Origin: an uncultured Aminicenantes bacterium
GTDB taxonomy: Bacteria > Acidobacteriota > Aminicenantia > UBA2199
Direction: 5' to 3'
DNA length: 64,000 nt
NCBI GenBank assembly: GCA_965195285.1
Contig: CBDAFS010000015.1
Coordinates: forward strand, 32,001 to 96,000
Position numbers and translations under genes: made by a program. Positions 2,224 to 20,504 of this stretch are shown in pieces. Numbering within the stretch: position 1 is the first letter of the stretch; every line of letters starts with the position of its first letter. The notes beneath the pieces were generated by a model. That model was not told the origin of the DNA and made no database searches. It saw nothing but the letters and a program-made list of their open reading frames with translations.

Positions 2224-3407
2224 AGGCTCCTTTTATTCTTCACATTGATATCGATGCTTTTTTTGCGGCCGTGGAAGTGATGTTGAAACCTTCCCTGAAA
2301 GGCAAGCCGGTCATTGTCGGCGGTATGCCCGATGAGCGGGGAGTCGTTTGTACCGCTTCCTATGCAGCCAGAAAGTTTGGCGTTCATTCGGGAATGGCCC
2401 TGAGAACTGCTGCCCAAAAATGTCCTTCCGGTATTTTCTTGAGAGGGCGATACCATATTTACAGTCAGATTTCCAGGCGTTTTTTTGATTCCCTCAACCG
2501 CCTTTCTCCCGGAGTTGAAGGGGTTTCCATTGATGAGGCCTATATTGATTTGAGAGGAATGCGGTATCTTTATCCTTCTGTTTATCAGATGGCTCAATGC
2601 CTGAAGGAATCGGTTGAAAAGGAGATCGGCCTAAAGGTCTCGGCAGGCCTGGGTTTTTCAAAATTAGGGGCCAAACTGGCTACCGAAGTGGCCAAACCCG
2701 GAGGTTTCTTTTTTCTGGGCGATGAAAGAACCTTTGTCTCCAATCTGGCCCTGGAAAAGATTCCGGGGATCGGGCCCCATACCCTTTTGATTCTCCAGGG
2801 GTTGGGCATAAAGCGGGTGAAGGAACTGGAGTCTGCTTACCCGTCTATCTGGAAAAAGCTCATCGGCCCGCATCTGTATTCCAGCTCCCGCTATCCGGGC
2901 AATACTCAGGGACAGGCCAAGAGTTTCAGCCGGGAAACCACTTTTCCCGAGGATATTTCGGACCGGGAAATGATCATGTCTCATCTGGCTTACCTGGTTG
3001 ACCGGTTATCGGTGTGTTTGATTGAACATCATCTGTTTGCCGGGCGGATTGAAGTCAAGGTGAGGTTCGGTGATTTTTCAACTTTTACCCGGAGAACCAC
3101 TCTGGAATTTCCCACCGGTTCTTATCAGCACCTGTGGAAAGCGTCATTATCTTTATTGAATCAGTTGCTCAATAAGAAGAAACTGGCCTTGAGACTGGTG
3201 GGGGTTAAGGTGGAAGATATGATGAGACAGAGGGATTTATTGCCTTTTGTCTGTTTGAAGAGCGAGAAATTGAGTCATGGGATAAGCGATATCCGCAAAC
3301 GGTTTGGTTTTTCGTCTATTTTTATTGGAAGGGAACTGTTTCTGGAAGGCATATACCCGGTGGAAAGGGAAGGAATGGTCTTGAAAACCGCTTCTTTAAC
3401 CAAATAA
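2220..3407 (+). CDS. dinB: DNA polymerase IV (Y-family)
   Basis: HIDIDAFFAAVE, SYAARKFGV and SIDEAY motifs; ATGA overlap with the lexA stop; clamp-like QRDLL near the C-terminus. Confidence 0.9.
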   Translation: MKAPFILHIDIDAFFAAVEVMLKPSLKGKPVIVGGMPDERGVVCTASYAARKFGVHSGMALRTAAQKCPSGIFLRGRYHIYSQISRRFFDSLNRLSPGVEGVSIDEAYIDLRGMRYLYPSVYQMAQCLKESVEKEIGLKVSAGLGFSKLGAKLATEVAKPGGFFFLGDERTFVSNLALEKIPGIGPHTLLILQGLGIKRVKELESAYPSIWKKLIGPHLYSSSRYPGNTQGQAKSFSRETTFPEDISDREMIMSHLAYLVDRLSVCLIEHHLFAGRIEVKVRFGDFSTFTRRTTLEFPTGSYQHLWKASLSLLNQLLNKKKLALRLVGVKVEDMMRQRDLLPFVCLKSEKLSHGISDIRKRFGFSSIFIGRELFLEGIYPVEREGMVLKTASLTK

Positions 3408-3491
3408 TTTTTCATAACCTGGTACTCTGGTGATTGAATATTTACGCATTATGATTTACACTAAATAAGATGATTTAATTATTGAACAACC

Positions 3492-6440
3492 ATGACACTT
3501 TCTAAAGATTATCAGCCTCAATTTGGTATATTTCATGATTTAATGAAATTCAGGGTGAGGGAGATCCTGTTGGTATCGAGTTATTATGATGCGTTTGTTC
3601 TGGAAGAAGACGGGAGGATATCCGAAAAGATATTCAGTGAGTATCTGGATTTAAACCTTCGTTATGTCCCCCGTATCAACCGGGTTTCAAGTGCCGAAGA
3701 AGCGCTGCTGCTATTGGAAGAAGGACATTATGACCTGGTGATTACCATGATGAGGATAGCCGATATGGATGTGATGGAATTCGGCCGCAAGATAAAGGAA
3801 ATAAACCCGGAACTCCCGGTTGTCCTCTTAACGTATGAATGGGTGGGGATTGATCTTTTTAGCCAATTGAGGACTTCAGCCAATATTGATAAAATATTTT
3901 TCTGGTCCGGGGATACCCGGATTTTGTTAGCCATCATCAAATATGTAGAAGACATCAAAAATGTCGATCAGGATATTAAGCAGGGGGTTCAGGTCATTCT
4001 TATCCTGGAGGATTCTCCCAAGTTTTATTCCATGTATCTTCCGGGCATATATACCGAGATCATGACCCAGACCCGGTTGTTAATCACCGAAGGTATCAAT
4101 GATTTACATCGATTGTTGAGAATGAGGGCCAGACCCAAAATCATTATGGCTGAAACCTATGAGCAGGGCATGAAACTCTTTCGAAAATATCGAAAGAACC
4201 TTCTTGGAATCATTTCGGATGTTGAATTTATCAGAAACGGTGAAATGGATGATACCGCGGGCTTTTTATTTGCGGAAAAAGCCAGGGGGGAAATCCATGA
4301 CCTGCCCATTTTGATCCAATCGGCCAAGTTGAAAAACAGGGAAATTGCTGTTCAAAACGAATTGGATTTCATTAATAAGAATTCCCCGCATTTATTACAG
4401 GAGTTGACCCAGTTCATTCTGAACCGGTTTGGCTTCGGTGATTTTGTTTTCAGTTATCCCGACGGCAGGGAGATTGGCCGGGCCGGTTCGCTTCATGAGT
4501 TTCAGAAGATGATCCAAATTATTCCGGCCGAAAGCCTGGAGTTTCATGCCAGCAGGAATCATATCTCCATCTGGCTGCGGGCCAGAACTGAATTTGAAAC
4601 AGCTGAAAAACTAAGGCCCAGAAAAGTATCGGATTTTACAGATATTGAAGAAGTGAGAAAATTCATTCAACGGACCATTCAAAATTTGATCATTCAGAAT
4701 CAGTCCGGTGTGATTACCGATTTCGGACCGGCCCGGTTTGATATGGACCATTCATTTGTGCGTCTGGGAAACGGTTCGATGGGTGGAAAAGCCAGGGGGA
4801 TCGCTTTCCTCAATAGCTTATTGATGGACTCACCAATCAAAAAAAACTTCGAAGAGGTAGATATCCGGACACCCCATACTTTTGTGATCTGCAGTGAAGT
4901 ATTTGAGGAATTTATCGCTGCCAATGATTTGCAGAACGTTGCCATCGGGGAAACCGACAATGACCGGATTGCTAATGCATTTATAGAAAAAAAGCTTCCG
5001 GATAGAATTGCCAGTGATCTTCGAACCTTGCTGGAAAATATCCGCTACCCTTTGGCCATTCGTTCTTCGAGTCTGCTCGAGGATTCTCAAATGCTGCCGT
5101 TTGCCGGTTTGTATTCCACCTATATGCTTCCCAATAATCATCGGGATGTCAGGGTACGGTTGGAACAGCTGTGCAAAGCCGTCAAGCTGGTATTTGCATC
5201 CGTGTTTTACAAATCTCCCAAGGAATATGTAAAAAATACAAATTTCAGAATAGAAGAAGAAAAAATGGCGGTGATTATTCAACAGGTAGTGGGCCAGGAA
5301 TTCAACCACAGGTTTTATCCGGTCATCTCCGGTGTGGCCCAGTCTTATAATTATTACCCGATTTCCAATATGGAACCGGAAGATGGGATTGTCCAGCTCG
5401 CACTGGGTCTGGGCACCACCATTGGAGAGGGCTCTCAGACCCATAAATTTTCCCCCCGGTTTCCGGAGATGAATCCACTGTTTTCAGCCCCGGTTGAATG
5501 GGTGAATAATTCTCAGAATTATTTTTATGCACTGAATCTCGCTGAACCGGATGTGGAAATAATAAAAGACGAAAAATTCAGTTTGAATAAATTGGACCTC
5601 ACCCATGCTGAAAGCGATGGGACCCTGTATTTTGTTGCCAGTACTTTTTCACCCCAGGACAATGTCATTCAGGATAACCTTACTATCAAGGGACCCCGAT
5701 TGGTGACGTTTGCCCATGTGTTGAAATACAATATTTTTCCGCTCTCGGAGATTCTGCTTGAGATCTTGAAATTGGGTCGCACCTCTTTTGGTTCTCATAT
5801 CGAATTGGAGTTTGCCATCAACCTGTTCAGGGAAAAGAAAAAGAAACCGGAATTTTTTCTGTTGCAGATAAGACCACTGGTTGGTGGGCGGGAAACCATC
5901 CAGGTATCCTGGGATCAGGATTCTCAAAAGGATATCATATGCATGTCATCCCATGCCCTGGGAAATGGGATATACGATGATTTGTATGACCTGGTTTATG
6001 TGGATCCCGATGCCTTTGATGTTTCCAAAAGCCGGGTTATAGCGGGCGAAATCGGAGAAATAAACCAGGGATTCATTGCAGAAAACCGAAAATATATTTT
6101 AATCGGCTTTGGTCGATGGGGTACCGCCGATCCCTGGCTGGGGATTCCGGTTGAATGGTATCAGATCTGCAAAGCCGGTATTGTGGTAGAATCCAACAGG
6201 GATGGTTTTATTGTAGACCCATCTCAGGGCAGTCATTTTTTTCACAATCTGGTATCTTTAAAAATTGGATATTTTCACATTAAAAAAACCAATGACCAGG
6301 AGTTCATATCCTGGGACTGGATCAAGAAACAACGCCCTTTCCGAAAAAAAAAATATATTAGACATGTTCGATTTAAAAAACCGCTTCCCGTAAAAATTGA
6401 CGGACGCCAGTCTAAAGGTATTATTTTGAAGCCCCGCTAA
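3492..6440 (+). CDS. Receiver-domain / PEP-pyruvate-binding (PPDK_N) fusion protein
   Basis: N-terminal REC-like repeats; GGKARG, PLAIRSSSLLED, FAGLYST and LLQIRP motifs; C-terminal SQGSHFFHN. Confidence 0.85.
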   Translation: MTLSKDYQPQFGIFHDLMKFRVREILLVSSYYDAFVLEEDGRISEKIFSEYLDLNLRYVPRINRVSSAEEALLLLEEGHYDLVITMMRIADMDVMEFGRKIKEINPELPVVLLTYEWVGIDLFSQLRTSANIDKIFFWSGDTRILLAIIKYVEDIKNVDQDIKQGVQVILILEDSPKFYSMYLPGIYTEIMTQTRLLITEGINDLHRLLRMRARPKIIMAETYEQGMKLFRKYRKNLLGIISDVEFIRNGEMDDTAGFLFAEKARGEIHDLPILIQSAKLKNREIAVQNELDFINKNSPHLLQELTQFILNRFGFGDFVFSYPDGREIGRAGSLHEFQKMIQIIPAESLEFHASRNHISIWLRARTEFETAEKLRPRKVSDFTDIEEVRKFIQRTIQNLIIQNQSGVITDFGPARFDMDHSFVRLGNGSMGGKARGIAFLNSLLMDSPIKKNFEEVDIRTPHTFVICSEVFEEFIAANDLQNVAIGETDNDRIANAFIEKKLPDRIASDLRTLLENIRYPLAIRSSSLLEDSQMLPFAGLYSTYMLPNNHRDVRVRLEQLCKAVKLVFASVFYKSPKEYVKNTNFRIEEEKMAVIIQQVVGQEFNHRFYPVISGVAQSYNYYPISNMEPEDGIVQLALGLGTTIGEGSQTHKFSPRFPEMNPLFSAPVEWVNNSQNYFYALNLAEPDVEIIKDEKFSLNKLDLTHAESDGTLYFVASTFSPQDNVIQDNLTIKGPRLVTFAHVLKYNIFPLSEILLEILKLGRTSFGSHIELEFAINLFREKKKKPEFFLLQIRPLVGGRETIQVSWDQDSQKDIICMSSHALGNGIYDDLYDLVYVDPDAFDVSKSRVIAGEIGEINQGFIAENRKYILIGFGRWGTADPWLGIPVEWYQICKAGIVVESNRDGFIVDPSQGSHFFHNLVSLKIGYFHIKKTNDQEFISWDWIKKQRPFRKKKYIRHVRFKKPLPVKIDGRQSKGIILKPR

Positions 6441-8268: not shown

Positions 8269-9094
8269 GTCCATTTATGGCCGGTACGGTCATGAGCAGA
8301 ACGATCATTACCGGTACTTTGATCATGAAATCAATGGTATCCGGATTCTGGCCCAGAGCCCGGGCAATCAGGTAATAGTATATGATCATATTCAATTGAA
8401 ATATAATGCTGATCAACAGCGCAGACATGAGCTCAAAAGGCCGGTGAAAGTAAATGGATAGGGCTTGGTAAGATTCGTTTAATAAATGACCGACTTTTTT
8501 CGGTAATATTTTATTCAAAAAATTAAGAACTTTGGGGGCAATACCGGGATGAGCCAACATCATTCCAACCGCTCCCATTAAAATCAGGACAGCGAATAAA
8601 AACCAGATTCCTGTATTTTCATTGTCTCCCCTTAGGGTTTTGATGATTAAAGCGGTCAGGGCGATTAAAATCAGGGCTGCCAATCCGGTTATCCTTTCCA
8701 TTATGACAACCATTAAAGAGGTGGTGGTTTTCCCGGTCAGTTTTTTGCTTTCAATGACTCGGAGGGTATCGCCTCCGATTGTGGATGGTAAAAAAGTATT
8801 GAAAAAAGCTGCCATAAAATAGTAAAGAAAGAGTTGGCCGAAGTTGGCCTGGACATCCTGGGCTCTTAACATGAATTTCCATCTCAGGCTAATCAGGCCG
8901 AATCCTACCAGGTGGAGCAGACTGGCCGGAATAAGGTACTTGAGCGAAGCAGAAGAAAAGGCCTCAAAGATCTTTTTAAAAGCATCGGTGAGGCCACCCT
9001 GTTGATTGGAGAGCATGAGCAGAAAGTATCCGATCAGTATGGTGCTGACCACTATCCTGAGAAATAAAAGTATTGTCTTTTTTTTCATGTTCAT
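8111..9094 (-). CDS. Lysylphosphatidylglycerol-synthase TM / UPF0104 flippase-like membrane protein
   Basis: RW..L, FFNTFLPSTIGGD, ERITGL and P..NGLG motifs; multiple TM helices. Confidence 0.85.
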   Translation of the reverse strand: MNMKKKTILLFLRIVVSTILIGYFLLMLSNQQGGLTDAFKKIFEAFSSASLKYLIPASLLHLVGFGLISLRWKFMLRAQDVQANFGQLFLYYFMAAFFNTFLPSTIGGDTLRVIESKKLTGKTTTSLMVVIMERITGLAALILIALTALIIKTLRGDNENTGIWFLFAVLILMGAVGMMLAHPGIAPKVLNFLNKILPKKVGHLLNESYQALSIYFHRPFELMSALLISIIFQLNMIIYYYLIARALGQNPDTIDFMIKVPVMIVLLMTVPAINGLGIRTVSFKQLMNFPPAFALSGELIDLGMRVGYGILGGLVFLIYRRPDHQKK

Positions 9095-10486: not shown

Positions 10487-11743
10487 ATGTTAGAAAAAAC
10501 GGTTTTGGATTGTGGCTTAACCATTCTCAGTGAATACCGACCCGAACTGCCCTCATTTGCACTCAGTTATTCCCTCAGAAGCGGCTCCCGGACCGAAACC
10601 CCTCAAAACAATGGTATCCACCACTTGATTGAACATATGATGTTCAAGGGCTCTCAACAATACGATTTGAAACAAATAGCCAGGATTTCAGATCAACTGG
10701 GTGGCAACTTGAATGCCTTTACCGGTAAGGAGATTACCCAGTTCTATTTAAAAGCCATTGATGAGAGATTTGAATTGGGTTTCGACATTCTGACCGATAT
10801 CATACTGAATGCCACTTTTCCCGGGGAGGAGTTCTTTAAAGAAACCAATGTGGTTTTGCAGGAGATCAAGGAGTCAGAAGATACACCCGATACCCATGCT
10901 TTTGAAATCTTTTACGAGCAGATATTTGAAAATAATCCTCTGGGTTATCCCATCTCGGGAAGGGAGGATCAGGTTTTGCTTTTCACCCAGGATATGGCCT
11001 TTAAGTTTTACAAAAAAAAATACAACCCGGAAAACCTGGTGTTGGCAGCTGTCGGGAATTTGGACCATTATTCTCTGGTCAAGGAAGCCCGGAGCTATTT
11101 TTCAGGCTTCAGGGCAAAATTACCAGCTGATTTTTCTTTTAAAAAACCGGAAATGGTTTTTGGAACTGCCGTTAAGGAAAAGGAATCCTTAAAACAGACT
11201 TACGTGATTATCGGATTTAAGGGCATTCCGGTTGTATCTCCCATCAGATATAAATTTTTATTGATGAATGAGATACTCGGCTCCGGGATGAGTTCCCGAT
11301 TGTTTCAAAGAATCCGTGAAGAAAAAGGCCTGGCCTATACCGTGCATTCCTTTCTGGATTTTTATCTGGATAACGGTTTGTTAATCGTTTATTCGATTGT
11401 CGAAGCGGAAAAAATCAATGATTATCTTCAGTCGGTAAAAGAGGAAATTAATTTATTGAAGCAAAAGGGGATCAGTAGAGAAGAACTGTCCAGAGCCAAA
11501 GATCATCTGAAATCTTCGATTATACTGGCTTTGGAAAGCAATGCGGCCAAAATGAGTTTCAATGTCAGCCAGGACCTGTTTTTAAAAAGAGAGGTGAAGA
11601 TCAATGAAATTTTAGAAAATATAAATGAAACCACTGTTCATGATATCAATAAATTACTGGAAATCCATTTGAATCTGGATCAGGTTGCCATGTTATTGTA
11701 TGGCAATGTTCAGGAAGAAAAATATCAAGATTTCACTTTTTAA
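10487..11743 (+). CDS. M16 family zinc peptidase
   Basis: Inverted HxxEH (HLIEH) motif; GMSSRLFQRIREEKGLAY. Confidence 0.92.
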   Translation: MLEKTVLDCGLTILSEYRPELPSFALSYSLRSGSRTETPQNNGIHHLIEHMMFKGSQQYDLKQIARISDQLGGNLNAFTGKEITQFYLKAIDERFELGFDILTDIILNATFPGEEFFKETNVVLQEIKESEDTPDTHAFEIFYEQIFENNPLGYPISGREDQVLLFTQDMAFKFYKKKYNPENLVLAAVGNLDHYSLVKEARSYFSGFRAKLPADFSFKKPEMVFGTAVKEKESLKQTYVIIGFKGIPVVSPIRYKFLLMNEILGSGMSSRLFQRIREEKGLAYTVHSFLDFYLDNGLLIVYSIVEAEKINDYLQSVKEEINLLKQKGISREELSRAKDHLKSSIILALESNAAKMSFNVSQDLFLKREVKINEILENINETTVHDINKLLEIHLNLDQVAMLLYGNVQEEKYQDFTF

Positions 11744-11792
11744 AAGGAATATGTTTTTTTCATATAGATTTTAATTATGATATGATATCCGA

Positions 11793-14700
11793 ATGGATAA
11801 GGCGAAGAAGATGAGAGTTGTTTTTACCGGAGGTGGCACCGGGGGCCATGTCTATCCGAATATTGCCATTTATGATGTCATAAAGGAGAGATACCCAGAG
11901 GCCTCTTTTTTGTATATCGGGACCAGAAAGGGGGCAGAGGAGAGAATCGTTTCCAATCTTCCCCAGCCTATAGAATTTGTCAGTATCGTGTCCAGGGGGA
12001 TTCCCCAGAAAATAAGGAGTTTTAAAACCATAATGGCCCTGCTGGTTATGTTTTTTGGATTTGTAAAAAGTTTTTTTGCACTCAGAAAATTTAAGCCGGA
12101 TGTCGTTATCGGCAGTGGTGGTTATGTGTCAGCCCCGGTTCTGTTTGCCTCGGCGTTTCTACGCTTAAAGATTTTTATTCATGAACAGAATGCGGTTCCC
12201 GGAAGACTAAATCGCTATATATCCAAGTTCGCACACAAAATAGGGGTCAGTTTTGCCTCTACCGCCAGTTTTTTTCCAAGGAAAAAAGTTGCCATTACCG
12301 GATATCCGCTCAGAAAGTCAATCCTGAAGAAAAAAGATGTGAATGTAAAAGAAAAATACGGTATTCCATCAGACAATCGTGTCCTGTTTATCTGCAGCGG
12401 AAGTAGCGGTGCCCGGACCATCAACAATGCCATTGCGGAAATTCTTCCGGATTTGTTGACCATCGATGATCTCACCATTATTATTTCAACCGGAAGGGGG
12501 TACACCAGAGAATACAGGGCTTTTGACGATACGGTTGCCATTCTCCAAAGAATTGGGGTTCAGCCTGATATTGAAGGGAAACTGATTATCCGGGAATATT
12601 TTGACAATATTGATGAAATTTATTCCATTTCGGATTTAATTGTTTCCCGAGCCGGTGCAGGTACCATCAAGGAAATTACCACACTGGGAATTCCTTCGAT
12701 TTTAATTCCAAAGATCGATCTTCCCGGGGATCACCAGATCTTAAATGCCATTGAAGTGCAGAAGATGGGGGGAGCTGAGATTGTATATGAAGAAGTCGAT
12801 CTGCGAAATAATCAGAAAACCATATATGTTCCGGAGAAAATACTTTTAGATACCATTCGGAAACTATTATTTGATAACCGGTTCTTTTCCCTGATGAAGA
12901 AGAATTTAGATAAGATTGATAAGCGGAATAGCGCCGAACTCATCCTGGCTGAGATTGAGTTGATCCTGGAAATTAAGCAATCGGTTGAGGAAAAACAGAT
13001 CAAGATTTTTTATCTGCAGTCTGAAGAAAGTGATAAGAGCTATGAATTGATTTTTGATTCCACAACCCTGGGGAATTCCTTCCTTTGTGATGTTTATCTG
13101 GGAGAGATCAAGTCCAATGTGATCTTCCGGATCAAAAATATCAACAATGATGAAAAGTTGATCCTTAAAAGGGTGAAGGGAAGGATTACATTGAATGGGG
13201 AGGAAGTGGGAGACTGGACTGAAATTGTAGAGAATGACTGTCTGGAAATTGCCGGTCATGTTTATGTTTTAAAACGTTATCTGGAAAAATTGGAACAGTT
13301 TCATTTTGAAAAAACCACTTCTTCTAAAATTTTGGGATCCTCTTTTGGCATTATGATCTCCCGGATTGGCGGATTTTTCAGGGAGATCGTTTTTGCCGCT
13401 ACTTTCGGAGCCGGGAAAACCATGAGTATTTTTGCGGTCGGATTAACCATTTCAAATTTTTTGAGGCGGGTGGTTGCCGAGAATGCCCTCGAGAATGCCT
13501 ATCTTCCCATATTTTTAAGAATTTTTCACCGGAGCGCGCGAAAAAAAACCTGGAAGGCTGCTTCATCCATTGTCAATGTCACTCTTCTGCTCTCCGTTAC
13601 CTTTACCCTGCTGGGTATTTTACTGGTCCCGCTGTTGATTAAATTTCTGTTTCCTGCATTCGTGGCCAGGGGAATGATTAATGAAACCATCAACATGACC
13701 CGACTGATGTTCCCTTATCTTTTTCTGGTGACAGTGGCATCGGTGATGACCACCTACTTGAAGGCCTTCAACCGTTTTGGTATTGCCGAGTCTTCGGCTC
13801 TGTTTTTTTCCGTCGGTACTATCACCGGAGTGGTTATCCTGCATTCATTCACCGGGATTTATTCTCTGGCTTACGGTGTTTTACTCGGCGGGGTTTTACA
13901 AATATTATTTGCCTTGCCATTTACCGTTAAAATACTTTCACAAAAGGCCTTGCAGTTTCATTATTCTCCCTCCATTCAATTTGCCAGCCCTGAGAATAAA
14001 AAATATTATTCACAACTGGGACCCATATTCATTGATGTCATCCTGTCAAATTCCTCTGAAATTGTTGCGCAGATACTGGCTGCCGGATTGAAAACAGGGG
14101 CCATTGCTTTTTTATATTTTGCCAAGACGATTTTCAGGTTGCCTTTTGCCATAATCTCACAGGCGATCAACAGTGTGATTTTAAGGGAGTTTTCGGATAA
14201 AATTGCCCTGTTCGATAAAGAGAAGGCCAGAAAATTATTCATCGATGGACTGAAAACCAATTTATTCCTACTCACTCCTATATCGATTTCTATGATTATT
14301 CTGGCAGAACCGATTGTTTCATTGATCCTGGGTCGCGGTGAGTTCAACCAGTCGGATATACTTCATACTGCATATGCACTCCAATTTTATTCGATCGGGT
14401 TGATCGGGTGGGGGATTCATTCGTTTACAGTCAGAATATTCTCGGCCAGGATGGATATTAAGACTTCCATGATATTGAATTTTTTCATGCTGACCACTAA
14501 TATTACACTATGCCTTCTACTGGTCAGGACAAGCTTGACTTTTGCCGGGTTGGCCCTGGCCACTTCACTTTCATATTTGATCTTTTCGGTTATCCGGGTG
14601 CTGGTATTGAAATACAAGCTGGAAAGAGAAGATATTCGAATCGCCTACCGGGAAATATTAATATCTTTTTTCAAAACCCTCCTGGCCTCATGTTTCATGG

Positions 14701-15578
14701 TGGTCATCATGCTGGAAACCAAATTAATATTTAAGAAAATTCCTTTCGGATCCAAAACCTTTGAAAACATTATAATGCTGGTATCCTTGCTGTTTATCGG
14801 AACTGCGGTATATTTCCTTTCATCTCTGTTACTTAAAAATACCGAAATTCTCATTTTAAGAAAAACCCTGATGAAAGGAGATAGAAATATACCGATTTCC
14901 ATGCTGTCACCTTTTGAGTTTTTAAACCGGGCCGCTCGATTTCCTGAAAAATTCAGGGATGATTACCTTTACAAGATCAATATTTTCATCTCCAGTGAAA
15001 AATGGGAGATCAGAAATGTGGGGGTTAAACTGGTAGGCATTTTTCAGGATAGAACCAAAATTGATTTTTTATTAAATTTGATAAAATCAACTTCTGCCAA
15101 TGGTTTCATCAAACGAAACGCACTGATGGCCTTGATCCAGCTGGATTTCTGGGATGCCAAACAAAAAGATTTAATGAAAAGCCTTTTAAATGACAGCTAT
15201 TTTGAAGTTAGAGCCGCCACAATTGAATACCTCTACAACAAGCTGCCTGACCAGGACTATGATGAATTCAAGGGTATGATTCATAAGAAATTGAAAAGAT
15301 CATCTCTGGAGGAAAAAATCGCCTCTTTGAAGCTCATTGGGAAACTCGGTTCAAAAGATGAACTCGCTTTACTGAAGCATTTCTACCTGAGCAGCAATTC
15401 CATCCTGAGAGAGGAATTGCTGGAAATGATTTTAAGATTTTACCGGAGGAAGCTGCTTTCTGTTGATGAAGTCAAAGAGCAGATTGATAAAATACTGAAA
15501 ACCTCCAATAACTTCAGTCCTGAGTTTAAGCTGAAGGCAATAATAAACAAGGTTTTTAAGGAGCTAGGAGAAACATGA
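11793..15578 (+). CDS. murG-murJ: MurG - FHA-like - MurJ - HEAT-repeat fusion protein
   Basis: MurG: GGGTGGH, HEQN..PG, SRAGAGT..E, HQ..NA. FHA-like segment ...LNGEEV...NDCLEIAG. MurJ: SRIGGFFRE, NFLRRVVAE, RLPFAII, GLALATS. C-terminal helical repeats (DSYFEVRAAT). One continuous ORF. Confidence 0.9.
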   Translation: MDKAKKMRVVFTGGGTGGHVYPNIAIYDVIKERYPEASFLYIGTRKGAEERIVSNLPQPIEFVSIVSRGIPQKIRSFKTIMALLVMFFGFVKSFFALRKFKPDVVIGSGGYVSAPVLFASAFLRLKIFIHEQNAVPGRLNRYISKFAHKIGVSFASTASFFPRKKVAITGYPLRKSILKKKDVNVKEKYGIPSDNRVLFICSGSSGARTINNAIAEILPDLLTIDDLTIIISTGRGYTREYRAFDDTVAILQRIGVQPDIEGKLIIREYFDNIDEIYSISDLIVSRAGAGTIKEITTLGIPSILIPKIDLPGDHQILNAIEVQKMGGAEIVYEEVDLRNNQKTIYVPEKILLDTIRKLLFDNRFFSLMKKNLDKIDKRNSAELILAEIELILEIKQSVEEKQIKIFYLQSEESDKSYELIFDSTTLGNSFLCDVYLGEIKSNVIFRIKNINNDEKLILKRVKGRITLNGEEVGDWTEIVENDCLEIAGHVYVLKRYLEKLEQFHFEKTTSSKILGSSFGIMISRIGGFFREIVFAATFGAGKTMSIFAVGLTISNFLRRVVAENALENAYLPIFLRIFHRSARKKTWKAASSIVNVTLLLSVTFTLLGILLVPLLIKFLFPAFVARGMINETINMTRLMFPYLFLVTVASVMTTYLKAFNRFGIAESSALFFSVGTITGVVILHSFTGIYSLAYGVLLGGVLQILFALPFTVKILSQKALQFHYSPSIQFASPENKKYYSQLGPIFIDVILSNSSEIVAQILAAGLKTGAIAFLYFAKTIFRLPFAIISQAINSVILREFSDKIALFDKEKARKLFIDGLKTNLFLLTPISISMIILAEPIVSLILGRGEFNQSDILHTAYALQFYSIGLIGWGIHSFTVRIFSARMDIKTSMILNFFMLTTNITLCLLLVRTSLTFAGLALATSLSYLIFSVIRVLVLKYKLEREDIRIAYREILISFFKTLLASCFMVVIMLETKLIFKKIPFGSKTFENIIMLVSLLFIGTAVYFLSSLLLKNTEILILRKTLMKGDRNIPISMLSPFEFLNRAARFPEKFRDDYLYKINIFISSEKWEIRNVGVKLVGIFQDRTKIDFLLNLIKSTSANGFIKRNALMALIQLDFWDAKQKDLMKSLLNDSYFEVRAATIEYLYNKLPDQDYDEFKGMIHKKLKRSSLEEKIASLKLIGKLGSKDELALLKHFYLSSNSILREELLEMILRFYRRKLLSVDEVKEQIDKILKTSNNFSPEFKLKAIINKVFKELGET

Positions 15579-16675
15579 TTGTCTGGTTAATGGAGTTTAT
15601 GGAATTTATTCCGGAATCGATTCAGCGGCTCTTTTCTTATGTTAGTTTTAGAGCATTGATGGCCATGTTAACTGCTTTTTTGTTCGGGGTTTTTGTGGGG
15701 AAAAGACTGATTAACATTATTTATCAGCTTAATTTCCGGGATGTATCCAGGAGTTATGGGAATTTGTCCCCGAAAAACAAAACAGGAACTCCCACCATGG
15801 GCGGGATCATCATTTTTTTATCTTTCCTGATTGCGGTGTTGATTTGGTCAAAGCCGGATAATTTTTTTATTTCAATTATTCTACTGGCCGCTTTCTGGTT
15901 TACCACTCTGGGTTTTTTTGATGATTATTTAAAAAATGTGAAAGGCACCAGTGATGCGGGTATGAGCCGGGGATTGAAGCTCTTTTTTCAGGCATTGTTC
16001 GGACTAATCCTGGGACTCCTGGTTTTATCAAACAACTCACCCATCGGCCAGGAAATAGCAACGAAACTGTTCATTCCCTTTATTAAAAATCCAGTTATCG
16101 ATCTTTCTTTTTTTTATTATATTTTTATTATACTGGTGATCATCGGAATTTCCAATTCGATTAATTTTGCCGATGGCCTAGATGGGCTGGCCGCAGTACC
16201 GGTTTCCCTGCTGGCTTTTGTGTATGCCGTATTTGCCTATATATTAGGCAATTCAAAACTGGCTGAATATTTACTCTTTCCCTATATAAACGGGGCCGAG
16301 GAACTGGTGATTGCACTGGCTGCCCTGGCAGGTGCCATGATCGGTTTTCTGTGGTTTAATACCTATCCGGCCGAGATATTTATGGGAGATACCGGTTCTC
16401 TGTTTTTGGGTGGAATTATTGCTACTACGGCGATATTGTTAAAAAAAGAAATACTATTTCTGGTTGCAGGCGGACTCTTTGTGATTGAATTCCTATCTGT
16501 TTTTATTCAGGACTATATTGGTATCAAATGGTTCAAAAGAAGGATTTTTTACCGGGCCCCGATTCACCATACCTATCAATTTTTGGGAATTGCTGAACCT
16601 AAAATTGTGGTTCGATTCTGGATTATAGCCGGGATTTTTACCCTGGTCAGTTTAATCAGCTTGAAGTTACGGTAA
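15575..16675 (+). CDS. mraY: Phospho-N-acetylmuramoyl-pentapeptide transferase
   Basis: KTGTPTMGG, GFFDDY, NFADGLDGL, FMGDTGS and APIHH motifs; ATGA overlap with the upstream fusion gene. Confidence 0.96.
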   Translation: MIVWLMEFMEFIPESIQRLFSYVSFRALMAMLTAFLFGVFVGKRLINIIYQLNFRDVSRSYGNLSPKNKTGTPTMGGIIIFLSFLIAVLIWSKPDNFFISIILLAAFWFTTLGFFDDYLKNVKGTSDAGMSRGLKLFFQALFGLILGLLVLSNNSPIGQEIATKLFIPFIKNPVIDLSFFYYIFIILVIIGISNSINFADGLDGLAAVPVSLLAFVYAVFAYILGNSKLAEYLLFPYINGAEELVIALAALAGAMIGFLWFNTYPAEIFMGDTGSLFLGGIIATTAILLKKEILFLVAGGLFVIEFLSVFIQDYIGIKWFKRRIFYRAPIHHTYQFLGIAEPKIVVRFWIIAGIFTLVSLISLKLR

Positions 16676-17385
16676 TGAAGGATATCAAAGACATTCTTGT
16701 TTTTCTGAGCCTTTCTCTTAAGATTTTTCTGAGTTTGGTGTTTTTCAATTTATTGTATTTGCTCATATCTATCATGATTATTGTTGGTCTCTTTTTTGTA
16801 TCTCCTGCACCAATGAGCCATTCGGGGTCTCTATTGTTGTTATTGATATCCATCATCGCTTTCCATATCGCTTTTAAAAACATTTTTTTGTTTAAATATC
16901 AGTGGTTGCTCAATTTCAGGTTTATAGATTTTTTAGGTAACAATCCATCATTGAACCCGCCGATATCGATGGACTATGACCGTGGGTTGAAACTTCCCAT
17001 TGAAGAGATAAAAAGTCAATATAAAGCCGTCAAATCTGGTTTAAAACCAAGAGGGCTGGCATTATTCTCAAAAATGTTTGTTATTTCCATGATAATGACC
17101 CTGATTTTAACTGAGCACCCATTCAACTGGAATCGGGGTATTACCGAAAATTTAAAAAAAAGCGTATTGAAGCTATACTTGTTGAATTTGCTGATTTTTT
17201 TCATGATATTGGTTACGTTTACCCTGATTTCATTTTTACTTACTATTGGAATTCATTTGGAATTGAAATGTCTGGTTTTTTTTATCGGATTTTTGTTTGC
17301 TTATTTTTTGCATGCTGCCCTGTTCGATCCCATTGTTTCACTCATGATTCAGAAGCAAACTTATTTGTCGGTTTCACAGAGTTGA
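16675..17385 (+). CDS. Hypothetical membrane protein (about 4 TM)
   Basis: Hydrophobic helices at both ends; TAATG overlap with mraY. Confidence 0.7.
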   Translation: MKDIKDILVFLSLSLKIFLSLVFFNLLYLLISIMIIVGLFFVSPAPMSHSGSLLLLLISIIAFHIAFKNIFLFKYQWLLNFRFIDFLGNNPSLNPPISMDYDRGLKLPIEEIKSQYKAVKSGLKPRGLALFSKMFVISMIMTLILTEHPFNWNRGITENLKKSVLKLYLLNLLIFFMILVTFTLISFLLTIGIHLELKCLVFFIGFLFAYFLHAALFDPIVSLMIQKQTYLSVSQS

Positions 17386-18787: not shown

Positions 18788-19156
18788 TTATCTGGTGCAG
18801 CTCCAGGTACCAGTCCAACCCGAATCTTCAATAAATGTGCCATTCATGGAGTTGTTGGTTGGAGCTGACCCAATATAATTTGATGAATTGCCGTTGTCCC
18901 AGACAACATTGAAATTTACCGTTGTTCCTGTTACCGTATATGTACCGATTCCACCCCAGCCATCCACTGCAGTGCCTGCAGTTGCTGATCCTGAAAATGT
19001 GATTGTGGTAACATATATGTCCATATCAGAATAAGTAAGGGTTAAACTCCAAAGTCCGACAATGTTAAAAACTTCTTCTTCAGCGGTTTTACAAGCAGGC
19101 ATAAATATTAAAGCAATACAAACTAAAAATAATAACAACAAAGAAAACTTTTTCAT
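18788..19156 (-). CDS. Small beta-rich lipoprotein
   Basis: Signal peptide with lipobox MPAC; GGAGG RBS; G-x-W beta motifs. Confidence 0.75.
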   Translation of the reverse strand: MKKFSLLLLFLVCIALIFMPACKTAEEEVFNIVGLWSLTLTYSDMDIYVTTITFSGSATAGTAVDGWGGIGTYTVTGTTVNFNVVWDNGNSSNYIGSAPTNNSMNGTFIEDSGWTGTWSCTR

Positions 19157-19259
19157 TGTTCCTCCTTTTTTTTTATATTATATAATTGAAAATATAAAAT
19201 CAATAAAAAACTTCAATAGCTTTATTTATGAAAAGAGCGATTATAACATACAAAAGTGA

Positions 19260-19350
19260 TTTTTGACTGATAGATCCTGTTGCAGTCAAAAAAAAGAGAA
19301 TAGTGGTGGCCATTACCCTGGCCCGATCGGTGTAGATCGGGCGGGGTAAG
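19260..19350 (+). repeat. comF-3'-derived direct repeat with two hairpins (left of RAYT)
   Basis: Matches 20363-20449 (87 bp, 1 mismatch) and comF 18531-18573 plus 18652-18677. Confidence 0.9.
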
Positions 19351-19365
19351 AGTATATATGACAAT

Positions 19366-20357
19366 AAGGGGTGACGGTGCTTGTATTCTTGTAAATATGT
19401 TGTTAAAATAAATGTATGAGAAGAGCCAGGATAACATACCAGGGTGCCTTTCATCATGCGATGAACCGAGGACATGAGGGAAAGAAAATCTTTTTAAAGG
19501 ATTCAGAAAAGAATTCATTTTTAAAACTATTAAAAGAGACTGCAAAAGGATACCGTATCAGAATTTTTGCCTATTGTATAATGGATAATCACTACCATTT
19601 AGTACTGGAAAACAGTTCAGGTCGGATGTCAGAATTTTTTAAAAAGCTTAATGGACAATATGGGAGGATTTATCGGAGAGAGAATAAAGGAAAAGGGTAT
19701 GTTTTCCAAGACAGATTTAAATCAAAGCTAATTCAGGATGATTCATATCTATTGATGGTTATTGGGTATGTATTGAAAAATCCTGTTAGAGCTGGTTCGG
19801 TTACAGATTTTGTGGATTATCAGTGGTCCAGTTCTTCAATGTATTTTAATAAAAATATTTTGGATATTGTAGATAATAAATATGTTGAATCACTCTTTGG
19901 TTCCTTTCATAATATGTCCAATCAGATCAGGAATTTGACAATCAAAAAATTGCCTGTAATTCTAACCAGGGTTGGAGAAATTATAGGTGGAGAAGAGTTT
20001 GTTGTCGAATCTTTGGAGAAGTTCAATCGTCGGAAACCGAATGATCAAGTAGAAGAGTATAAAAGAAAAGATGATTATTATTTTGATCCTGTAGAAAAAG
20101 TGTTTTATGAATTTAAAAAGAAACATAAAATAAATGCTTTTGATATTGACACAAGATCTTATAAAGGCAAACGATTGAGAGGTGAATTGTTGGTTTATTT
20201 GAAGGATAATGCGGGATTAACATATGGAATGATAAAAAAAGTACCTATTTTTAGTGACCTTAAAATCAATTCCTTGGGATGGATTTACAAAAATGCAAAA
20301 ATCCGGTTGAAAAGCTAATTTGAGATAAATACAAGTTTACAAGCACCGTCACCCCTT
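19366..20357 (+). mobile_element. RAYT/Y1-transposase element with 28-bp terminal inverted repeats
   Basis: Left AAGGGGTGACGGTGCTTGTATTCTTGTA (19366-19393); right copy in reverse orientation at 20330-20357 (26/28 identical). Confidence 0.8.
19416..20318 (+). CDS. REP-associated tyrosine transposase (Y1_Tnp, HUH) with C-terminal helical extension
   Basis: MRRAR...HHAMNRG, AYCIMDNHYHL (HUH), FQDRFKS, YVLKNPVRAG (catalytic Tyr) and YQWSS motifs; AT-rich. Confidence 0.92.
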   Translation: MRRARITYQGAFHHAMNRGHEGKKIFLKDSEKNSFLKLLKETAKGYRIRIFAYCIMDNHYHLVLENSSGRMSEFFKKLNGQYGRIYRRENKGKGYVFQDRFKSKLIQDDSYLLMVIGYVLKNPVRAGSVTDFVDYQWSSSSMYFNKNILDIVDNKYVESLFGSFHNMSNQIRNLTIKKLPVILTRVGEIIGGEEFVVESLEKFNRRKPNDQVEEYKRKDDYYFDPVEKVFYEFKKKHKINAFDIDTRSYKGKRLRGELLVYLKDNAGLTYGMIKKVPIFSDLKINSLGWIYKNAKIRLKS

Positions 20358-20362
20358 TTTTA

Positions 20363-20449
20363 TGACTGATAGATCCTGTTGCAGTCAAAAAAAAGAGAAT
20401 AGTGGTGGCCATTACCCTGGCCCGATCGGTGTAGACCGGGCGGGGTAAG
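20363..20449 (+). repeat. comF-3'-derived direct repeat (right of RAYT)
   Basis: TGACTGATAGATCC...GGGCGGGGTAAG, matching 19264-19350. Confidence 0.9.
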
Positions 20450-20504
20450 GACCTATAGAGAAGGAGGAGGTTGATTATTAATCGATAAGATGGCTTTCAT
20501 TATT

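Follow-up and report, generated by a model that had tools for sequence, protein, structure and literature searches.

A MurG-MurJ fusion with FHA-fold and HEAT domains encoded next to mraY in an uncultured Aminicenantes bacterium

MurG, MurJ and MraY are essential antibiotic targets, and how lipid II reaches its flippase from its synthase is still debated, the identity of the flippase having itself long been disputed. Can synthase and flippase be one polypeptide, and what would such a union do? The question is raised by a locus in an uncultured Aminicenantes bacterium (GTDB lineage Bacteria; Acidobacteriota; Aminicenantia; UBA2199), carried by a 64,000-nucleotide stretch of DNA (assembly GCA_965195285.1, contig CBDAFS010000015.1, positions 32,001 to 96,000 of the forward strand), hereafter referred to as the window. 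An initial annotation, made from the sequence alone, had described in it an open reading frame (ORF) of 1261 amino acids (P0001; 11793-15578, plus strand, starting with ATG) as MurG, an FHA-like domain, MurJ and HEAT repeats in a single chain, with mraY overlapping its stop codon and no other genes of the division and cell wall (dcw) cluster beside it. The four-part anatomy is borne out by Pfam, NCBIfam and fold searches, the overlap by four shared nucleotides, and the lack of adjoining dcw genes by annotation of the neighbors.

We propose that the only MurG and the only MurJ of this organism reside in one chain, translationally coupled to MraY, and form a local assembly line for lipid II, a reading to which we assign a probability of about 0.7. 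The fusion is real, conserved and mechanistically suggestive, and it is built from well-known parts.

Integrity of the reading frame and anatomy of the fusion protein

The fusion ORF is genuine, under selection and not an assembly artifact. Its frame is intact in all 39 loci fetched from species-level genomes, whose guanine-cytosine (GC) content ranges from 0.28 to 0.69, and mraY lies immediately downstream in all 39, overlapping the fusion gene in at least 20. A 35.5-kb contig from run X2, which belongs to another study than the putative source run, covers positions 11700-16700 without gaps and with 8 substitutions, and none of the 4 runs compared has an indel listed. With 39 of 39 frames open and an independent contig free of gaps, the stop or frameshift between domains that the initial annotation named as a possible refutation is not there; the translation has neither stop nor start structure at the domain borders. 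Among the 120 best listed homologues, 113 measure 1240-1277 amino acids, down to 47% identity. All 120 carry precomputed Pfam hits to PF04101 and MurJ, all but three have the N-terminal GT28 domain as well, and their source names are Candidatus Aminicenantes or metagenome-assembled genomes (MAGs) of Acidobacteriota. As a side observation, one relative with a GC content of 0.64 (locus L041, G138:C53) has, antisense to its fusion gene (2402-6184, minus strand), an open frame of 1262 amino acids over the full length of that gene (2432-6220, plus strand), most likely a frame artifact of high GC content.

The MurG domain (residues 1-395; 11793-12977, plus strand) satisfies the two-domain GT-B architecture of GT28 enzymes, with Pfam matches above the cut-off to Glyco_transf_28 (PF03033, residues 9-151, E = 2.7e-33, 115 bits) and Glyco_tran_28_C (PF04101, residues 197-337, E = 1.6e-23, 84 bits). 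It aligns with residues 7-333 of E. coli MurG (1f0k, E = 4e-31), and in this alignment GGTGGHVYP, HEQN, GSSGAR, RAGAGTIKEI and HQILNA match the E. coli motifs. We take the glycine-rich loop GGTGGH and the nucleotide-sugar motifs of the C-terminal domain to be MurG signatures. This part is, as predicted from its sequence, the glycosyltransferase (lipid II synthase) that converts lipid I to lipid II.

The MurJ domain (residues 513-1028; 13329-14876, plus strand), a predicted lipid II flippase of the MOP superfamily, passes both family models by a wide margin (PF03023, residues 534-981, E = 5.1e-73, 246.6 bits against a cut-off of 27.4; TIGR01695, residues 517-1019, 288.2 bits against 235.55). 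It aligns with residues 12-512 of the solved MurJ chains 7waw and 7wag (E = 9e-48 and 8e-42), and its collinearity with residues 12-512 of the 522 in 7wag_A indicates a full core of 14 transmembrane helices; this alignment was relied on since the Kyte-Doolittle scale is too crude to count the 14 helices of MurJ. The charged residues of the central cavity are presumably R18, R24, R52, R270 and D39 in E. coli numbering, and arginine is retained at the positions matching R18, R24 and R52. In a crude hydropathy scan, the stretch between residues 232 and 597 and everything C-terminal to residue 1014 stayed free of hydrophobic segments above threshold. Both termini of MurJ are cytoplasmic, as is known from work on E. 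coli; together with the lack of hydrophobic segments outside MurJ, this would place MurG, the FHA fold and the HEAT domain on the cytoplasmic face. Their shared location makes both domain orders found in the module described below, MurG-MurJ-HEAT and MurJ-MurG-HEAT, topologically legal, and means that the form seen in the window could plausibly have arisen through insertion of MurJ between MurG and HEAT.

The gene that follows, mraY (P0002, 366 amino acids; 15575-16675, plus strand), has a start codon that overlaps the stop codon of the fusion, the two sharing ATGA (15575-15578, a 4-nucleotide overlap). An AGGAG resembling a ribosome-binding site was read inside the end of the fusion ORF (15566-15570, plus strand), 4 nucleotides 5' of the mraY ATG, and may serve its translation. 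The product matches PF00953 (Glycos_transf_4 with the MraY signature) and TIGR00445 (302 bits against a cut-off of 192), and D116, D117, D200, D203, D272, H331 and H332 are invariant in an alignment of 38 sequences; these columns presumably include the catalytic residues.

Between MurG and MurJ lies a domain (residues 399-507; 12987-13313, plus strand) which has no Pfam family at E <= 10 and contains the motifs TLGN, CDV, LNGEEV and NDCLEIAG quoted in the initial annotation. Its AlphaFold2 model is all-beta (predicted local distance difference test, pLDDT, 85.1; predicted template modeling score, pTM, 0.74), and the top-ranked PDB matches listed by Foldseek are all FHA domains (E from 1.6e-5 to about 2e-4, template modeling scores of about 0.6-0.69), including CEP170, EmbR, FhaA/Rv0020c, Ki-67, KIF13A, OdhI/GarA and YscD; the structure of FhaA in complex with the intracellular domain of mycobacterial MviN/MurJ (3oun) is listed as well. 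A profile of 30 middle domains searched against the PDB ranks the EmbR FHA domain highest (E = 4e-4), followed by that of Ki-67, one non-FHA match and the KIF13B FHA domain, the last two FHA matches being weak; 3 of the 30 homologues match the FHA-clan family PF16697 (Yop-YscD_cpl, best E = 1.8e-6) and one matches PF00498 (FHA, 0.0022). The canonical phosphothreonine-binding positions, judged in the 30 homologues through the alignment to EmbR, are degenerate, in line with the initial annotation, which had noted the absence of the binding Arg, Ser and His in the window's copy: the Arg of GR is Asn in 23 and Arg in 2, the Ser of SxxH is retained in 3, its His is Phe in 24, and Lys or Arg replaces the Asn of NG in 29. 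The two glycines and the flanking loops (TTxGNS, KG) are still conserved, so that sequence and model together describe a predicted FHA fold whose loop face, though conserved, differs in its chemistry. Because the canonical binding residues are lost, a phospho-independent adaptor or spacer is more likely than a classical phosphothreonine reader. The host genome (3.3 Mb) has 29 matches to Pkinase (Hanks-type kinases), many in frames of 800-1200 amino acids, and a link of the domain to kinase signaling is possible, although its residues give no indication of one.

The C-terminal domain (residues 1030-1261; 14880-15575, plus strand) is a HEAT-like alpha-solenoid. Its match to HEAT_2 (PF13646, residues 1064-1147) is marginal in the window, at 28.0 bits against a cut-off of 27.7, and reaches 55-72 bits in relatives. 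A profile of 39 HEAT sequences finds the designed HEAT-like alphaRep proteins in the PDB at 2.4e-20, and also MTH187, YibA, Integrator-4 and PP2A-A. The model has 14 helices (pLDDT 92.8, pTM 0.89), and its nearest solved folds in Foldseek are alphaRep, PP2A-A and importin-alpha, which are generic protein-binding solenoids. The domain is most likely a protein-binding scaffold, for which MraY, the cytoplasmic faces of MurG or MurJ, Mur ligases and synthase complexes are candidate ligands. A complex prediction for HEAT and MraY scored 0.01, which weighs neither way and is not evidence.

A module outside the dcw cluster and its distribution

The genome (3.28 Mb, a 62-contig draft, 94.9% complete) contains no other MurJ match above the cut-off, and no stand-alone murG or murJ was found elsewhere in it, a check that the initial annotation had suggested. 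A second GT28 match was rejected as a hidden MurG, being a macrolide-type (MGT-type) glycosyltransferase in NCBIfam, and a second MOP match was rejected as a hidden MurJ, being Wzx-like. The dcw cluster lies on another contig (C62) in the order mraZ-rsmH-ftsI-murE-murF-murD-ftsW-murC-ftsQ-ftsA and lacks exactly mraY and murG; murF/murD and ftsW/murC overlap by 8 nucleotides each, which means that the canonical slots of the two missing genes are closed. The same two gaps recur in the five other module-bearing genomes examined (six of six with that of the window), some of them complete-looking assemblies of 1-3 contigs. By comparison, both genomes examined from sister families without the module, which have separate murG and murJ genes, keep the canonical order murF-mraY-murD-ftsW-murG-murC. 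The module, consisting of MurG-HEAT with or without MurJ and of MraY, replaces the dcw-encoded mraY and murG.

Far from being missing in relatives, which was another possible refutation, the fusion was found in 24 of 24 genomes of the family in one sampling and in 67 of 71 in a larger one. The four misses in the family (completeness 73-93%), as well as one miss in family f6, also lack a GT28 match above the cut-off and are probably assembly gaps. Across the class, sampled with 251 genomes of 14 families, the fusion occurs in only three families among the matches listed. That of the window has MurG-FHA-MurJ-HEAT, with the middle domain present in all 29 family loci; the second has MurG-MurJ-HEAT, the middle domain being shortened in one genus and missing from another; and the third has the permuted order MurJ-MurG-HEAT.

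Beyond the class, the profile of the HEAT domain matches 42 of 301 Acidobacteriota genomes, and in all 12 loci fetched from them MurG-HEAT is followed by mraY. Of these 12, two have murJ fused, one has it as a separate gene just upstream and one has it on the far side of mraY, downstream; it was not found within the flanks of about 8 kb in the other eight, nor were other dcw genes within about 8 kb of any of the 12. At locus L064 (G515:C30, 6283-10599, minus strand), MurG-HEAT and mraY are followed by murJ, an order which implies that murJ can adjoin the core pair on either side. With a 1204-amino-acid MurJ-MurG-HEAT protein as the query, 19 further loci were retrieved from MAGs labelled Deltaproteobacteria, Syntrophobacterales or Syntrophobacteria; 17 of them have the module with mraY behind it, and the remaining two are cut off by a contig end. 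Further source names are Candidatus Lernaella stagnicola (1316 amino acids), Latescibacterota (MurG-HEAT) and Omnitrophota. The view of the fusion as an isolated case therefore does not hold, the same or a permuted architecture extending through the whole family, two further families of the class, other Acidobacteriota and MAGs labelled Deltaproteobacteria.

Among the best 150 matches to representatives at 50% identity, 22 have at least 1137 amino acids, many are MurG-HEAT proteins of about 590-770 amino acids and two are MurJ-HEAT. We typed 427 pooled sequences with segments of P0001 as queries, writing the domains from N to C terminus as G (MurG), F (FHA fold), J (MurJ) and H (HEAT); this pool, which is biased by the queries and contains some locus/protein duplicates, comprises 149 GFJH, 130 GH, 64 G, 55 JGH, 16 GJH and 2 JH sequences and a few truncated ones. 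The HEAT domain of the window matches 353 of the 427 and is homologous across all architectures, and two-domain MurG-HEAT proteins are the commonest form among matches from outside Aminicenantia; HEAT is chiefly a partner, and an old one, of the MurG lineage of the module. The MurJ-HEAT proteins P0266 (729 amino acids) and P0290 (771 amino acids) have no MurG, which implies that HEAT can be attached to either enzyme. The FHA profile matches only linkers leading from MurG to MurJ (8 of 16 GJH, 0 of 55 JGH and 0 of 130 GH), a pattern suggesting that this fold was added only there. Five proteins of about 1310 amino acids (P0207-P0211, one of them from Candidatus Lernaella stagnicola) have the order MurG-MurJ-HEAT with a linker of about 160 amino acids that does not match the FHA profile, which looks like an independent fusion with an uncharacterized linker.

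In a FastTree phylogeny of 186 MurG domains, 136 HEAT-linked rows (including 10 typed as MurG only, some of them probably truncated) are split from 50 stand-alone MurG proteins with an SH-like support of 100, and the stand-alone side includes the dcw-encoded MurG proteins of two sister families of the same class. The MurJ-MurG-HEAT forms are interleaved with MurG-HEAT. A quick IQ-TREE search of 61 rows keeps the main split at an SH-aLRT support of 94%, which is not starred; both trees are unrooted, many rows deviate in composition, and the sampling followed similarity searches. In both, the MurG-MurJ-HEAT proteins of the Lernaella type group with the MurJ-MurG-HEAT/MurG-HEAT clade, and in the FastTree phylogeny they lie away from the clade of the window. 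MraY of the module scores 209-262 bits against module MraY proteins of other classes and 160-167 bits against dcw-encoded MraY proteins of its own class. From these comparisons we infer that the module has probably evolved as a unit separate from the dcw pair, and that fusion of MurG and MurJ appears to have arisen at least twice.

The genes surrounding the fusion and mraY in the window encode a nucleoside transporter, an M16 peptidase, a membrane protein without a family, a ComF-like protein and an IS200-like transposase, and no other dcw gene adjoins the pair. The multi-pass membrane ORF directly downstream (P0389, 236 amino acids; 16675-17385, plus strand) overlaps the mraY stop codon by 1 nucleotide (TAATG) and has no Pfam or NCBIfam family. 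It was rejected as a conserved member of the module, and its membership is doubtful: the sole non-self match in a tblastn search of the 39 fusion loci, many of which end soon after mraY, was weak (L052). In only 15 of 29 family loci is the M16 peptidase gene the next one upstream in the same orientation, and outside the family it is not there; it was likewise set aside as local synteny. Neither promoter-like sites (28, with 22.1 +/- 4.8 expected) nor terminator-like sites (11, with 10.0 +/- 2.6 expected) between positions 9000 and 18000 provided a usable operon boundary. Elsewhere in the window, an ORF at 3492-6440 (plus strand) encodes a 982-amino-acid protein with a response-regulator receiver and PPDK_N (the ATP-binding domain of pyruvate phosphate dikinase). 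The IS200-like Y1 transposase ORF (19416-20318, plus strand), about 3 kb downstream of the module, lies in a region of low GC content (0.32-0.33) and strong GC skew (19000-20500) and may represent a mobile insertion.

A proposed assembly line and its alternatives

In the mechanism that we propose, MraY would make lipid I, to which the tethered MurG would add GlcNAc, and the resulting lipid II would be released within nanometers of the MurJ cavity and then flipped. MurG, the FHA fold and HEAT would sit on the cytoplasmic side, beside the inward-facing mouth of MurJ, and the fusion together with the overlapping genes would fix a 1:1(:1) stoichiometry and the co-localization of the three membrane steps. 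What is shown is the anatomy, the folds, the conservation, the sole-copy status, the synteny and the dcw gaps; substrate channeling, which the initial annotation proposed as well, a physical complex with MraY and the roles of HEAT and FHA are putative.

Several observations weigh against this proposal. A tether by itself is no proof of channeling, and the hand-off is something that we infer; moreover, the chain may be cleaved after translation into separate proteins. At the cavity positions of MurJ corresponding to R270 and D39 stand Thr and Ser, with a Lys at -1 and an Arg at +3 beside the Thr. The MurG part scores 227.5 bits against TIGR01133 (residues 4-387), below the cut-off of 250.25, and the main split of the MurG tree depends on the unrooted and compositionally uneven data described above. 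Two RNA libraries contain pieces of the gene that match the window at 100% identity, one of these pieces crossing the MurG/FHA border; they are weak evidence of expression, as contigs from RNA libraries are no proof of transcription and the FHA/MurJ junction is not bridged by any of them. Finally, a few assemblies from a single genus of the family show the fusion gene in two adjacent frames (G141:C2:165393-168264; G143:C1:290106-293874; G100:C11:4689-8094; G134:C30:609-2195). The break lies near residues 182-185, where the two lobes of MurG meet, or within the FHA fold near residue 445, and probably reflects frameshift errors in assemblies of few contigs.

Such split genes, and the 62-contig state of the draft genome, are what could be held in favor of an artifact of assembly or gene calling, in which two or three adjacent genes were read as one because a stop was missed, the frame shifted or the contig was chimeric. 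Set against the open frames at 39 of 39 loci from independent assemblies, the full length of 113 of the 120 listed homologues, the gap-free contig of another study, the lack of listed indels and the featureless domain borders, the chance of this is negligible. It is also very improbable, though less so, that the module synthesizes and translocates some other undecaprenyl-linked glycolipid, such as one for a secondary polymer, while the genuine lipid II enzymes are encoded in the 5% of the genome missing from the assembly. The low equivalog score of MurG, the separate branch of HEAT-linked MurG apart from the dcw-encoded one and the completeness of 94.9% would fit this reading; MurJ and MraY pass their equivalog models, however, the dcw clusters of all six module genomes are contiguous, with tight overlaps at the mraY and murG slots, and no further MurG-like GT28 or MurJ gene was found in the genome, in which the MurG part is the best MurG-like gene despite its score.

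A more modest alternative would have the fusion serve only co-expression, a fixed stoichiometry and the anchoring of MurG to the membrane, as a "Rosetta stone" of pathway membership, with neither direct hand-off nor a stable complex with MraY; HEAT and FHA would then regulate the protein or bring it to the sites of division or elongation. We consider this unlikely, since three consecutive membrane steps have been united repeatedly, MurG/MurJ fusions occupy at least two separate branches of the MurG tree and mraY always adjoins. It draws some strength from the unfixed domain order (both G-J-H and J-G-H being found), from the eight MurG-HEAT loci without murJ in their flanks, and from the existence of Mur chimeras that join non-consecutive steps (MurG-MurC, MurD-FtsW, MurC-Ddl), for which the authors of the survey describing them argue stability and control of expression (PMC10214165).

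The assembly line may also be part of something larger. According to a bolder version, which is possible but doubtful, HEAT is an assembly platform docking MraY, and perhaps SEDS-PBP synthases or MurF, onto MurG and MurJ, so that lipid I, lipid II and flipped lipid II stay within one complex, a "lipid II metabolon", which displaced the dcw-encoded MraY and MurG in several phyla; the degenerate FHA domain would gate MurJ without phosphorylation, like a hard-wired form of FhaA-MviN control. If this were true, the repeated fusion would be independent genomic evidence that MurJ, and not FtsW, takes lipid II directly from MurG.

Significance and comparison with known systems

In agreement with the initial annotation, which knew of no described example, the literature search found no description of a MurG-MurJ fusion, of MurG with HEAT repeats, of Acidobacteriota dcw clusters without mraY and murG, or of relevant work on Aminicenantes peptidoglycan, supplements lying outside the search; the papers listed for MurG together with HEAT repeats dealt with ATR, DNA damage and other unrelated subjects, and none with the cell wall. 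The wider module, (MurJ)-MurG-HEAT with mraY, of which the fusion is one form, was likewise not found in the literature searched. The possibility, raised at the same time, that the architecture is already catalogued applies to automatic database names (JGI "MurJ / MurG", NCBI), no literature description having been found; NCBI records name such proteins only "MurJ" because the TIGR01133 score is under the cut-off. A covalent fusion of MurG and MurJ that has arisen more than once, always with mraY, may act as a "Rosetta stone" for the hand-off of lipid II and would be a ready-made construct for cryo-electron microscopy of the synthase-flippase pair. The module and the dcw clusters without mraY and murG point to a second genomic organization of the membrane steps of wall synthesis, and HEAT, as a new accessory domain, is a concrete target for follow-up.

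Among systems with regulated flippases, Gee et al. are said to have reported in 2012 that mycobacterial MviN (MurJ) has a C-terminal pseudokinase and is regulated through the FHA protein FhaA. The fusion resembles it in being a MurJ flippase with extra cytoplasmic domains and an FHA-fold module tied to it, in a host genome rich in Hanks-type kinases. It differs in that its FHA fold precedes MurJ within one and the same chain and has no phosphothreonine-binding Arg, Ser and His; a pseudokinase is absent, the C terminus extending instead into a HEAT solenoid, and the chain includes MurG as well.

The closest relatives of the window protein are the MurG-HEAT (about 650-720 amino acids) and MurJ-MurG-HEAT (about 1150-1200 amino acids) proteins, with which it shares homologous MurG and HEAT domains, mraY as the next gene wherever the flank is available, and a dcw cluster without mraY and murG. 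In contrast to both, it has MurJ placed between MurG and HEAT, and the linker with the FHA fold.

Natural Mur chimeras also place enzymes of the peptidoglycan pathway in one polypeptide. The available part of a survey, which left out unidentified species, names MurE-MurF, MurC-Ddl, MurC-MurB, MurG-MurC, MurD-FtsW and MraY-MurG, and MurG-MurJ is not among the chimeras named there (PMC10214165). Unlike these, the protein in the window combines a soluble or peripheral enzyme, a flippase of 14 transmembrane helices and two non-catalytic domains, encoded outside the dcw cluster.

Lastly, in E. coli, MraY and MurG are reported to associate within elongation and division complexes (PMC2170320), which shares with the present proposal the idea that the membrane steps of lipid II synthesis operate as an assembly. 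In E. coli, however, the proteins are separate, encoded in the dcw cluster and held together non-covalently, whereas in the system analyzed here two of the three are covalently joined.

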